A DNA stretch of 64,000 nucleotides, from contig OZ253946.1 in the NCBI GenBank assembly GCA_965267295.1, forward strand, positions 3,600,338-3,664,337. Direction: 5' to 3'. This DNA is from Pseudomonadales bacterium (lineage in GTDB: Bacteria; Pseudomonadota; Gammaproteobacteria; Pseudomonadales; Azotimanducaceae). Numbering within the stretch: the first letter of the stretch is position 1; the number at the start of each line of letters is the position of its first letter. The notes under the pieces are model-generated. The model did no database searches, was not told where the DNA came from, and worked only from the letters and a program-made list of their open reading frames with translations. Of this stretch, positions 54,712-62,930 are shown one piece after another. Position numbers and translations under genes: made by a program.

Positions 54712-55474
54712 CGCCTTTGTGCGCGACAATCAGATCGCAATAGTCTCGATAACAAGTAGTCGATACTTCTATCACCAAGCCGGCACTGGTTACAATTTTC
54801 TCGAACTCTTCATGCGTGTGAAGCCACATCAAGCCCTTGTCCTGATCTTTAGTGGCATTACGGTTCTGGCGAAGCCCCTGACGGTTTTCATAGAACGCCG
54901 AAAAGAAGCGCATCGGACCGAACCGGCGCACGGTATTCGAAAATATATACCAGGTCCAATCCACCAAACGCTGCCTGCGACCAAAGTCTATCAGGTACAG
55001 TTTCCCATCAGGTTTTAACCAAGTATTTATCAGCTTAAGTACGAGGTCTTGCGGTGGGGCAGTGTTTAGAGAGTTCACACACACGATCAGGTCAAACTCG
55101 TCCTCTTCGAAAGTCGCCCTCTGCATAAATTCTTCGACTATCTCGACTTTTTCAATTCCCTTTTCCTTGTACTTGCTCTTCGCAACTCGATTCATTGCTG
55201 GATCTGAATCTAGGTGGACGAAGTCTGCTGAAGGAACTAGATCGTGCAGAGCGAGTACAAAATTACCTGTACCCGCACCCAAATCTAAAACTTTTGGCGC
55301 TTCGGGGAGTTCCAGTCTCCCGACTATGTCCAAAAGATAGTCGATGTTTTCTTGATAGGCTGGAATCAGCTCGCACATACTGTCGAACTGATCTGCATAA
55401 GCGCTGTACTCTAGCCGTCGCTCATCGTCCTTGACAGGCGCCGTAAGCACTTCGACGGGCTCGGCTCTGTTCAT
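54698..55474 (-). CDS. class I SAM-dependent methyltransferase (island)
   Basis: Motif I VLDLGAGTGNFVLAL and post-I acidic residue (VHLDSD). 258 aa. The last 14 nt run antisense into the RidA-like gene. Confidence 0.8.
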   Translation of the reverse strand: MNRAEPVEVLTAPVKDDERRLEYSAYADQFDSMCELIPAYQENIDYLLDIVGRLELPEAPKVLDLGAGTGNFVLALHDLVPSADFVHLDSDPAMNRVAKSKYKEKGIEKVEIVEEFMQRATFEEDEFDLIVCVNSLNTAPPQDLVLKLINTWLKPDGKLYLIDFGRRQRLVDWTWYIFSNTVRRFGPMRFFSAFYENRQGLRQNRNATKDQDKGLMWLHTHEEFEKIVTSAGLVIEVSTTCYRDYCDLIVAHKGAIPP

Positions 55475-55490
55475 TTACTGCAACAAAAAG

Positions 55491-61445: not shown

Positions 61446-61529
61446 TTCCTACAGCAGGATTCCCCAAAGTAGCTGACAATACGCCGATCGGCTGCAGAGC
61501 TGAAGATTGGGAACTAGCAGGCTCGACAA

Positions 61530-62930
61530 ATGAGCAGGGGAATCAACAGTAAATCTAAAGAGTTAGGACTGTCCAAACCGCTTTCCTCCAAGTCAATTTA
61601 TGATTGGCTGACTTTAGCGCCATCCAAACTGCGTGATGCCTCGGTTGAAAGTTTTTCGCTCTGGCGTCCTTGGATGATCCTTATCTGCTCTGCAACGCTC
61701 TTGTTCCACTTGTCGTTCTTTCTTATCAACAAATCTCAAGGTTTAACTGAACCCGTTGTAGCCCGAGTCCTCGCAGTCCTGGTTCTAATACCTTACTTGA
61801 TCACGCCAGTGCTGGAGAGTCGGCAGACGATACCCTGGCCGAAGCAGTTTTTCATTTTCGCAATCACAATTACCGGACCGGGCCTACTCCTCAGTGGCCT
61901 ACTGCTCGAGCTCTCTCAGAACGACCCAAATCTCGCGCTCATTTCACAAAGACAAACGGAGTTCGTCGCTGCCGTCGGGATCCTAGTAATCTCTGCCACG
62001 AGCGCACTAGCAGCTTTGGCATCTACGCTGATCGTGTGTTCGATCGTTTACTCACTTCATCTAGTATTTACCCCCCTTTCCTTTGGGATCCTAGGCTCAA
62101 GTTCAATCGCCAACATTTTTTCAACGTACATCCTCTTCTTCGTTGCTTTCGCTTTGGCAATGCGCTTCCGAAACGATCAAACCAAGAACAGAATGGAGGC
62201 AGCATCGCGGATTGGGTCCGCCATAGCCCACCAACTCCGCACCCCACTCGCCACCATCAGAAACCTATCCAGCGGAACGACGAAACGTCTGCCTGAGTTG
62301 GTGGAGGGTTACAAATATGCGGTCGCGCAAGGCAGGATCGAGCAACCTATCCCGCAGGAGAAACTCGAGCAGCTGAAGGAGAGTCTGGAATCGATATCCG
62401 GCGAGGTAGAGCATTCCCACGCGCTGATCGACATCCTCATCGCGAACTCCAAACCCATCGAGATGCTGGAACGACCGTCCACCCCGGTTTCGATACGCGC
62501 CGTTGCGAATCGCGCCGTGAATGGTTACCCGTACAACAGTCCATACGAAAGATCATTGGTAGTGCTGGAAGACGGCGATGATTTCGACGTCTACGCACAG
62601 GAAAACATGTTGCTACACGTGCTGTACAACCTCATCGGTAACGCTGTTGAGTTTTCACAGAAAGGCAAAGCACCCTCCGTCACATTGTCGGTGTCGACTG
62701 ACACAGACTGGAACGTGCTGAGCGTTCGCGACACCGGCATCGGTGTGGCGCGGAGCAATCTGCACCGCATCTTTGATCCATTCTTCTCACGCAACTCCCA
62801 GAACGGAACCGGCATCGGCCTGAGCTTCTGCAGAAGCGTCATGGAGGGCCTGGGCGGGAAGATCGAGTGCCGTTCAGAAGAAGGCGAATACTGCGAGATG
62901 CTCCTGTACTTCCCCGCCGCTACCGATTGA
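61530..62930 (+). CDS. membrane sensor histidine kinase, no adjacent response regulator (island edge)
   Basis: About 6 helices in aa 45-211. H-box SAIAHQLRTPLATI (His at nt 62229). N-box LYNLIGNAVEF. G-boxes RDTGIGV and GTGIGLSFC. The stop overlaps the amidohydrolase stop by 11 nt. Confidence 0.85.
   Translation: MSRGINSKSKELGLSKPLSSKSIYDWLTLAPSKLRDASVESFSLWRPWMILICSATLLFHLSFFLINKSQGLTEPVVARVLAVLVLIPYLITPVLESRQTIPWPKQFFIFAITITGPGLLLSGLLLELSQNDPNLALISQRQTEFVAAVGILVISATSALAALASTLIVCSIVYSLHLVFTPLSFGILGSSSIANIFSTYILFFVAFALAMRFRNDQTKNRMEAASRIGSAIAHQLRTPLATIRNLSSGTTKRLPELVEGYKYAVAQGRIEQPIPQEKLEQLKESLESISGEVEHSHALIDILIANSKPIEMLERPSTPVSIRAVANRAVNGYPYNSPYERSLVVLEDGDDFDVYAQENMLLHVLYNLIGNAVEFSQKGKAPSVTLSVSTDTDWNVLSVRDTGIGVARSNLHRIFDPFFSRNSQNGTGIGLSFCRSVMEGLGGKIECRSEEGEYCEMLLYFPAATD

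Follow-up and report, generated by a model that had tools for sequence, protein, structure and literature searches.

The closest described relatives of the system considered here are Nas354 and Nas343, metagenomic N-acyltyrosine synthases fused to a PilZ domain, the products of which are surfactants with antibiotic activity (Thies et al. 2016, PMC4897644). Another N-acyl amino acid synthase, NasP, is reported to be activated by cyclic adenosine monophosphate (cAMP) (Clardy and Brady 2007, cited in PMC4897644). Methylated lipid products are represented by the Phc system of Ralstonia, in which the methyltransferase PhcB makes methyl 3-hydroxymyristate that is sensed by the membrane kinase PhcS (PMC8578825), by the stieleriacines, the clusters for which pair a synthase with a methyltransferase (PMC12479983), and by N-acyl alanine methyl esters (NAMEs) from Roseovarius tolerans, the biosynthetic genes for which have been reported as unknown (PMC11580390). 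Here we describe a cassette of 8.2 kb, bases 54712-62930 of a 64-kb stretch (hereafter, the window) of contig OZ253946.1 from a Pseudomonadales bacterium of the family Azotimanducaceae, in which a predicted N-acyl amino acid synthase fused to a double PilZ module is encoded together with a membrane-bound nucleotidyl cyclase, a transporter, a methyltransferase and a histidine kinase. The remaining sequence of the window served as the comparator.

On balance, we lean towards the view that uncultured Pseudomonadales (Ca. Azotimanducaceae and relatives) carry this cassette as a chromosomal operon, conserved within the lineage, that serves the regulated production of a methylated N-acyl amino acid (lipoamino acid). 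In the proposed mechanism, the synthase would move a fatty acyl chain from acyl carrier protein (acyl-ACP) or acyl-CoA onto an amino acid, and the binding of cyclic dimeric guanosine monophosphate (c-di-GMP) to the PilZ module would switch this enzyme on or off post-translationally; the methyltransferase would then modify the product, most plausibly by forming a methyl ester on the free carboxylate, and a pump of the resistance-nodulation-division (RND) superfamily would take it out of the inner membrane. The cyclase would turn a membrane signal into cAMP, which would feed back on transcription via a CRP/Vfr-type regulator binding upstream of the cyclase gene, and the kinase would provide a second membrane input, possibly by sensing the lipid product. 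The product itself may act as a surfactant, an antibiotic or a signal resembling N-acyl-homoserine lactones (AHLs).

The genes of the cassette

The cassette comprises the following features, from left to right:

54698-55474, minus strand: class I S-adenosylmethionine (SAM)-dependent methyltransferase, 258 amino acids (aa), the last gene of the operon (Pfam)
55491-57743, minus strand: MMPL/HAE3-type RND transporter, 750 aa (Pfam, NCBIfam, hydropathy)
57757-59226, minus strand: two PilZ domains fused to a synthase of N-acyl amino acids (PilZ-PilZ-NAS), 489 aa from TTG 59226, with an alternative start at ATG 59268 (Pfam, AlphaFold, Foldseek)
59198-60634, minus strand: membrane class III nucleotidyl cyclase, 478 aa (homologue profile against solved structures)
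60635-60908: divergent intergenic region of 274 nt between the genes of the cyclase and the 178-aa protein
60909-61445, plus strand: conserved soluble protein, 178 aa, divergent from the cyclase gene
61530-62930, plus strand: polytopic membrane histidine kinase, 466 aa (Pfam, hydropathy)

A scan of one genome per species yielded 39 related loci, all of them in metagenome-assembled genomes (MAGs). Among the 26 non-redundant loci that extend for 6 kb or more to either side, the cyclase gene is found in all 26, the methyltransferase and kinase genes in 25 each, the MMPL transporter gene in 21 and the gene of the conserved unknown protein in 6. The description of the cassette as a self-contained module, given in an earlier note that was made from the letters of the window, agrees with the counts, the cassette genes being inherited together across the related loci. 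The domain content that the note assigned to the genes agrees with the Pfam, NCBIfam, profile and fold searches, and its functional outline (sensor, messenger receptor, acyltransferase, methyltransferase, exporter) is supported by the domain identities together with the co-inheritance of the genes. Of the five-gene minus-strand unit that it proposed, four genes are real; the fifth, a 64-aa open reading frame (ORF) at 60641-60835 on the minus strand, probably is not a gene. This ORF was found only in contigs of the same species, with no homologue at the same position in other species, even at E = 10, and no match in Pfam or NCBIfam. As the small ORF is not conserved, the organisation becomes that of a four-gene unit and a divergent intergenic region of 274 nt, which presumably holds promoters for both transcription units; scans for sigma-70 promoters and terminators gave nothing above chance.

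The synthase and its PilZ module

The core enzyme is, by prediction, a FeeM-type N-acyl amino acid synthase. The gene as recorded starts at TTG, 14 codons after the start of the longest (503-aa) ORF. The Pfam family FeeM (PF21926) matches residues 317-425 of that ORF with E 1.4e-7 (31.9 bits, cut-off 27) and is carried by most of the synthase homologues, of which there are more than 150 at full length, nearly all metagenomic. In an AlphaFold model built with 20 homologues (predicted local distance difference test, pLDDT, 82), the FeeM-type domain occupies residues ~300-440, and the best acyltransferase structural match is FeeM itself (Foldseek against 2g0b: E 1e-6, target-normalised TM-score 0.64-0.69, root mean square deviation 4.3-5.5 A). 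The catalytic glutamate of FeeM is E95. The candidate catalytic residue of the synthase is E352 (58171-58173), which lies within the motif QIMEVSRV and is invariant in the 20 homologues over which the conservation of the synthase motifs was judged. This motif matches the QIAEVS of Nas354, as read from a mutagenesis primer, where Glu103 has been experimentally proven to be catalytic (PMC4897644), the equivalence of the two residues being based on motif matching.

The N-terminal part of the protein, residues 1-230, is a double PilZ module of the YcgR/MrkH type, in which the canonical motifs for c-di-GMP binding are retained; it is, accordingly, a predicted c-di-GMP receptor. Pfam PilZ is matched with E 1.5e-11 (44.9 bits against a gathering score of 22.5), and a Foldseek search with the model retrieves MrkH, YcgR, PP4397, PlzD and MotI with E 6e-9 to 1e-6 over 211-239 columns. 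The motifs at issue are those of the second barrel, namely, RxxxR (R125/R129, 58840-58854) and DxSxxG (D158/S160/G163, 58738-58755), both invariant in the 20 homologues, whereas the first PilZ domain has a partial, non-canonical motif, with R28..R32 and [R/K]xSPLG only.

One further assignment was considered for this protein, that of a synthase associated with the PEP-CTERM/exosortase system, and was ruled out: the search of the synthase against NCBIfam (E up to 0.01) returned no family, including the model for the PEP-CTERM/exosortase-associated N-acyl amino acid synthase, and no exosortase genes were found in the synthase neighbourhoods of the related loci.

The cyclase, cAMP and the question of the PilZ ligand

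The protein encoded upstream of the synthase has ~5-6 transmembrane helices in residues 35-190, judging from hydropathy, and a catalytic domain at 250-415. Against Pfam at E = 10 it matches no family, and NCBIfam likewise returns none, whereas a profile built from 22 homologues matches the solved structures of the Pseudomonas aeruginosa CyaB (3r5g, E 3e-12) and the Spirulina CyaC (1wc1, E 5e-9), as well as photoactivated adenylate cyclases. The metal-binding residues D262 and D304 and the transition-state residues N378 and R382 are invariant in these 22 homologues, and T371 aligns with the specificity threonine of class IIIb. The likely substrate is ATP and the likely product cAMP, as judged from these residues. 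More than 300 homologues of the cyclase were found, nearly all metagenomic.

The link between cyclase and synthase is particularly tight. The cyclase gene is found upstream of the synthase gene in every locus where upstream DNA is available and adjoins it in practically all loci, with an overlap of stop and start; in the window, the overlap is 29 nt with the synthase start at TTG 59226 and 71 nt with that at ATG 59268. The two genes are translationally coupled, and the distance matrices of the two proteins are correlated with Mantel r = 0.84.

The DNA upstream of the cyclase gene suggests, from the relatives, cAMP control through a predicted CRP/Vfr-type operator. When the 400 nt that precede the cyclase gene were scanned in 40 loci, the palindrome TGTGA-N6-TCACA was present with at least 9 of 10 matching positions in 11 loci (L011, L012, L013, L015, L016, L004, L021, L023, L029, L034 and L043) and with at least 8 of 10 in 23, to be compared with the ~0.5 and 4-6 loci, respectively, that are expected from shuffles and from 1779 other stretches of the same loci (p about 1e-12 for the stricter threshold). 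In an unbiased test of all 3072 palindromes that have arms of 5 nt and a spacer of 4, 6 or 8 nt, this one ranks first, the runner-up being found in 5 loci. The sites are located 64-343 nt upstream of the cyclase start codon.

The earlier note implied that one messenger links the cyclase and the PilZ module, the cyclase making what the PilZ module binds. This proposal calls for correction, one protein being a class III adenylate-cyclase-like enzyme and the other carrying a canonical c-di-GMP-type PilZ. We know of no class III cyclase that produces c-di-GMP and of no PilZ domain that binds cAMP; because the messenger types differ, the cyclase and the PilZ module are not a producer/receptor pair by known chemistry. 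The proposal can be saved in the form of a private circuit, where the double PilZ module would in truth bind what the class III cyclase makes, possibly a cyclic nucleotide of a non-canonical kind, so that the cassette would encode both producer and receptor. The universal overlap of the two genes and the tight co-evolution of their products would fit such a circuit, and so would the odd specificity position of the cyclase (the invariant Arg300-Lys301), its weak similarity to the Pycsar cyclases (E 4e-9), the non-canonical [R/K]xSxxG of the first PilZ domain, and the lack of a GGDEF or EAL gene in the conserved neighbourhood. Nevertheless, we consider this circuit to be quite improbable given that, apart from the mismatch in known chemistry, the second PilZ domain is fully canonical with invariant c-di-GMP motifs, the structural neighbours of the PilZ module are all c-di-GMP receptors, and the enrichment of the CRP-type operator offers cAMP a conventional target. 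We therefore retain the reading with two messengers, in which c-di-GMP would act on the synthase and cAMP on transcription.

A separate candidate, the Pycsar anti-phage defence, was rejected. PADLOC reported only generic PycC (34 bits, E 4e-9) and methyltransferase matches, with no effector model; the weak PycC match is to be expected of any class III cyclase.

Methylation and export

The last gene of the operon encodes a class I methyltransferase that matches the Pfam families Methyltransf_25, 31, 23 and 11 with E 1e-17 to 3e-15. The role of methylation is illuminated by the most distant loci, L033 and L042, found in MAGs labelled Bdellovibrio. These loci keep the cyclase-synthase pair and lack both the class I methyltransferase and the MMPL transporter; instead, the pair is adjoined by a non-homologous membrane methyltransferase of the PEMT/ICMT family (L042:11410-11952, plus strand; L033:2169-2768, minus strand). 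Given this displacement of one methyltransferase by another, methylation is part of the pathway. Enzymes of the ICMT type form a methyl ester on the carboxylate of lipidated amino acids, and the same reaction would convert an N-acyl amino acid to its methyl ester. Since the pairing of synthase and methyltransferase is kept despite the non-homologous replacement, these genes become candidates for the production of methylated N-acyl amino acids, compounds the biosynthesis of which is reported as unsolved in the only producers studied (PMC11580390).

Two other features of L033 are worth recording. It has a kinase gene upstream, and 5 kb downstream of the cyclase-synthase pair (L033:10899-12050, plus strand) there is a gene for a protein with two cyclic nucleotide monophosphate (cNMP)-binding domains, which could be a receptor for the cyclase product.

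The transporter matches Pfam MMPL in two stretches (E 7e-24, 84.8 bits against 20.5) and, below the family cut-offs of NCBIfam, HAE3 (E 1.6e-36, 125.7 against 351.9 bits) and HpnN (E 3e-16, 58.6 against 751.9 bits); it is also related to NPC1-like proteins. Hydropathy reveals ~12-16 hydrophobic segments in two clusters, with two long loops between them.

These lipid-related affinities bring up another possibility, namely, that the cassette makes a membrane aminolipid. Under this scheme, an OlsB-like synthase would produce a lyso-aminolipid of the ornithine, lysine or glycine type, the head group would be methylated, and an HpnN/MmpL-like transporter would carry the lipid toward the outer membrane, so that the envelope would be remodelled under the control of c-di-GMP and the kinase, in place of signalling or the making of a surfactant. 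Indeed, the synthase domain also scores above the threshold of Pfam Acetyltransf_5, the OlsB/hemolysin-type family (25.7 bits against 22.4), the best named relatives of the transporter (HAE3, MMPL, HpnN, NPC1-like) move lipids, the methyltransferase that stands in for the class I enzyme in L033 and L042 has its best score with PEMT, which is a phospholipid N-methyltransferase, and L001 and L004 both have a conserved gene for a PlsC-type acyltransferase within a few genes of the cassette. However, FeeM scores higher than Acetyltransf_5 and provides the best acyltransferase structural match, no OlsA-type second acyltransferase is encoded inside the cassette in any locus, and the characterised PilZ-fused synthases release single-chain N-acyltyrosines (PMC4897644). 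An aminolipid is, in our opinion, an unlikely product, and a methylated N-acyl amino acid remains the one that we prefer.

The divergent gene pair

The kinase has ~5-6 transmembrane helices with short loops, and its H-box (H234, at 62229-62231) is accompanied by N, G1 and G2 boxes that are all intact. Pfam recognises HATPase_c (E 3.5e-23), whereas HisKA, at 23.4 bits, stays under its gathering score of 26.9; no receiver domain (Pfam Response_reg) was found in the protein. In the 25 of the 26 loci that have it, the kinase is a protein of 430-470 aa with 4-7 transmembrane helices. The best NCBIfam match is to the catalytic core of LuxN, over residues 263-464, with 120.9 bits against a cut-off of 1550. 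A LuxN-type quorum-sensing receptor was ruled out by this miss of the family cut-off, by the alignment being confined to the core and by the lack of a receiver domain. A common ancestry of the membrane domains of the kinase and the cyclase was rejected as well (hhalign probability 0.7%).

The other gene of the divergent pair codes for the 178-aa protein, which is present only in the sub-clade nearest to this genome, at the same position in 10 loci. The family is narrow, with 54 cluster representatives among 1.84 billion proteins, and the protein has no sequence match in Pfam, NCBIfam or the PDB. Its AlphaFold model is of high quality (pLDDT 94.7), with no significant Foldseek match (best E 0.13, TM-score at most 0.31); the weak partial matches (E 0.13 or worse) are all to acetyltransferases of the GNAT fold.

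One can go a step further and envisage the cassette as a signalling system that is complete in itself and of a new type: the signal would be the methyl ester of an N-acyl amino acid, made by the c-di-GMP-gated synthase and a carboxyl methyltransferase, released by the RND pump, and perceived by the kinase and/or by a lipid-sensing membrane anchor of the cyclase, with cAMP/CRP as the output. If true, this would supply the missing biosynthetic logic of the NAME compounds, and the signal would be an analogue of AHLs. This extension we regard as doubtful. Several observations weigh against even the more general reading, that of a regulated operon for a methylated N-acyl amino acid. The methyltransferase has only generic family matches, the best NCBIfam one being BioC with 50 bits against 185, and PEMT-family enzymes can N-methylate as well. 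No response regulator adjoins the kinase. In the cyclase, the position of the adenylate-cyclase lysine is held by the invariant Arg300, followed by the invariant Lys301. The window itself contains only CRP-like sites with 7 of 10 matching positions (e.g. 60859-60874), which is the chance level, and the evidence for CRP comes from the relatives only; moreover, regulators of the CRP family can take other ligands, as exemplified by the Xanthomonas Clp, which responds to c-di-GMP.

Composition, position and age of the cassette

The genes that flank the cassette in the window are:

53448-54269/54377, minus strand: inositol-monophosphatase-family gene (Pfam Inositol_P), left flank
54331-54711, plus strand: RidA-like gene (Pfam Ribonuc_L-PSP), left flank, divergent from the inositol-monophosphatase gene
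62920-63990, minus strand: Amidohydro_2-family gene (Pfam E 3.4e-30), right flank, convergent with the kinase gene

The GC content is 49.3% (0.493) in 54712-62930 as compared to 60.8% (0.608) in the rest of the window, and the deficit is seen at all three codon positions. For five cassette genes (the kinase gene excluded), the GC content of third codon positions (GC3) is 0.49-0.54, that is, 3.2-4.1 standard deviations below the mean of the 48 other ORFs of the window (0.716, standard deviation 0.057); the kinase gene is intermediate (0.63, z = -1.5). Tetranucleotide usage, normalised for base composition, correlates with that of the rest of the window with r = 0.65, whereas 24 other segments of 8.2 kb give 0.90-0.96. 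The low-GC segment described in the earlier note is thus borne out by all three measures. Its right border is gradual rather than sharp, the 3' half of the kinase gene having a GC content of 0.52-0.60. The statement that there is no spare DNA at the junctions is correct: the methyltransferase ORF (54698-55474, minus strand) and the RidA-like ORF (54331-54711, plus strand) overlap tail to tail by 14 nt, and the kinase ORF (61530-62930, plus strand) overlaps the amidohydrolase ORF (62920-63990, minus strand) by 11 nt, so that both end genes run into the stops of their neighbours. Within the minus-strand unit, the intergenic gaps are of 16, 13 and 6 nt. The scans for mobility determinants also came out as the note had it: Pfam detected no integrase or transposase among the proteins of the cassette, no tRNA was found in the cassette region, and flanking repeats were limited to short chance matches. 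A search with Rfam over 53000-64000 detected no riboswitch and no other RNA.

What is not supported is the interpretation of these features as a horizontally acquired insert in this genome, in the sense of a recent event. The 39 loci nearly all carry the labels Pseudomonadales, Gammaproteobacteria or Ca. Azotimanducaceae, and uncultured Pseudomonadales have the cassette enclosed by the same neighbours in ~25 species-level genomes, although the flanking proteins are only 55-83% identical between relatives. Among the 26 loci, the cassette is adjoined by the inositol-monophosphatase gene in 23 and by the RidA gene in 19, and the kinase gene by the amidohydrolase gene in 14, the last of these with the cassette in either orientation. 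The GC content of the cassette is below that of the flanks in 39 of 39 loci (mean difference -9.7 points) and GC3 is lower in 32 of 32 (mean 13 points). Furthermore, the GC content of the cassette follows that of the host at half the normal slope (cassette GC = 0.18 + 0.53 x flank GC, r = 0.91; 39 loci, with 54701-62927 taken for the window), so that the gap is ~15 points in hosts with 67% GC and less than 2 (about 1.6) in hosts with 38-47% GC. The GC trough in every host, combined with the conserved position, argues against a recent insertion in this genome and for the cassette as an old resident of the lineage. The low GC content is a persistent property of the cassette in all these hosts, and points to long residence under a weaker drive to GC, whether through low expression or silencing of the genes or through a reduction in biased gene conversion.

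A recently acquired genomic island, i.e. foreign low-GC DNA inserted between two core genes, appears very improbable in the light of these data, even though the atypical GC, GC3 and tetranucleotide usage in the window are what one would expect of it. The position is shared by ~25 species-level genomes in which the proteins of the flanks differ by 24-40%, cassette proteins are only 35-66% identical between hosts, with no recent common donor apparent, no integrase, transposase, tRNA or direct repeat was found, and relatives of the cassette were lacking from 2.9 million viral contigs and 72,556 plasmids. Certain findings do pull away from long residence. The cassettes share a tetranucleotide signature, with a mean r of 0.72 between cassettes against 0.62 with their own flanks, and are closer to one another than to these flanks in 19 of 21 loci; and the distances of cassettes and flanks are congruent in a positive but weak way (Mantel r = 0.22-0.43, with the cassette distances near saturation), which does not tell vertical descent from occasional exchange. 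With the amidohydrolase as the probe in metagenomes, no cassette-free site was found for comparison, its orthologues (at most 63% identity) lying in unrelated contexts. We allow, accordingly, for occasional exchange or replacement of the cassette between lineages within the clade. For the detection of genomic islands, this cassette is a counter-example: a segment of 8 kb that is 11 GC points off and atypical in tetranucleotide usage, and yet occupies the same site family-wide.

The resident cassette has also been rearranged. The four-gene block occurs in two orientations between the kinase gene and the RidA-like gene, each in about half of the species: type A, which is that of this window, was counted in 12 loci, and type B in 13; relative to 54698-60634 of the window, the block order is inverted in, e.g., L015, L017, L018, L031, L034, L038 and L043. 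The two orientations are the result of in-place inversion. Further internal shuffles are seen in L030, L032 and L040.

Several side observations concern the surroundings. Two loci, L009 (a contig of 5.3 kb that bears the label Bacteroidetes) and L010 (with the label Alphaproteobacteria UBA2966), have a typical Pseudomonadales-type cassette with the synthase 53% identical to that of this window; their taxon labels probably reflect binning or naming errors and not transfer. In several relatives, genes for an acyltransferase of the PlsC type, for a MatE transporter and for a protein of the beta-lactamase family are repeatedly seen within a few genes of the cassette (L001:18605-19543 and L004:1789-2769 for the PlsC-type neighbourhood, with adjoining genes); in this genome (locus L006), the beta-lactamase-family and MatE genes lie beyond the amidohydrolase gene, and no PlsC-type gene is present within its 21 kb. 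Elsewhere in the window, a strongly negative AT skew at 47.2-49.1 kb corresponds to an operon for a tripartite ATP-independent periplasmic (TRAP) transporter, DctP/DctQ/DctM (46156-49134); the skew is ordinary, resulting from the T-rich second codon positions of plus-strand genes for membrane proteins.

Comparison with known systems

The resemblance to Nas354 and Nas343 lies in the fusion of PilZ to a synthase and in the catalytic glutamate within a Q-I-x-E-V-S motif. The architecture, however, is different: in those proteins of ~394 aa the synthase is N-terminal and is followed by one C-terminal PilZ domain, whereas here the double PilZ module comes first in a protein of 489 aa. In addition, the genes of Nas354 and Nas343 were judged to lie outside a biosynthetic operon (PMC4897644), and the gene described here belongs to a conserved cassette, together with the genes for the cyclase, the RND transporter, the methyltransferase and the kinase. 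With NasP, the cassette would share the control of N-acyl amino acid synthesis by a cyclic nucleotide; NasP is reported to be activated by cAMP directly, whereas here the synthase carries PilZ domains and cAMP from the neighbouring cyclase would probably act via the CRP-type site. With YcgR, MrkH, PP4397 and PlzD, the PilZ module shares the two-barrel fold and, where the second barrel begins, the RxxxR and DxSxxG motifs, but those proteins work on their own as effectors, with the flagellar motor or DNA as the target, and here the module is fused to an enzyme.

As with the HpnN/MmpL exporters, the gene of an RND-superfamily lipid transporter is located beside that of the enzyme that makes the lipid, although the transporter described here falls under both the HpnN and the HAE3 family cut-offs. 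OlsB is likewise a GNAT-type N-acyltransferase, but there is no counterpart of its partner OlsA here. The Phc, LuxM/LuxN and CqsA/CqsS systems resemble the cassette in that a lipid-derived signal is encoded beside a polytopic membrane histidine kinase and, in the case of Phc, in that synthesis ends in a SAM-dependent methyl esterification; they differ from it in that a synthase of N-acyl amino acids, a PilZ domain, a cyclase and an RND pump are all missing from them. The kinase is similar to LuxN in the catalytic core alone, lacks a receiver domain and misses the LuxN cut-off. The NAMEs come closest in chemistry: an N-acyl amino acid followed by O-methylation, as predicted here, would give exactly this class of compounds. 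Their producers are Alphaproteobacteria, and the comparison is one of predicted chemistry and not of gene homology.

In the literature searched, we found no description of this combination of genes, in line with what the earlier note had supposed. The parts of the cassette come from known families, while its architecture and regulatory wiring are undescribed. Being limited to uncultured environmental Pseudomonadales, the physiology of which is almost unknown, the cassette offers a concrete, testable model for the joint control of the production of a lipid surfactant or signal by c-di-GMP and cAMP.

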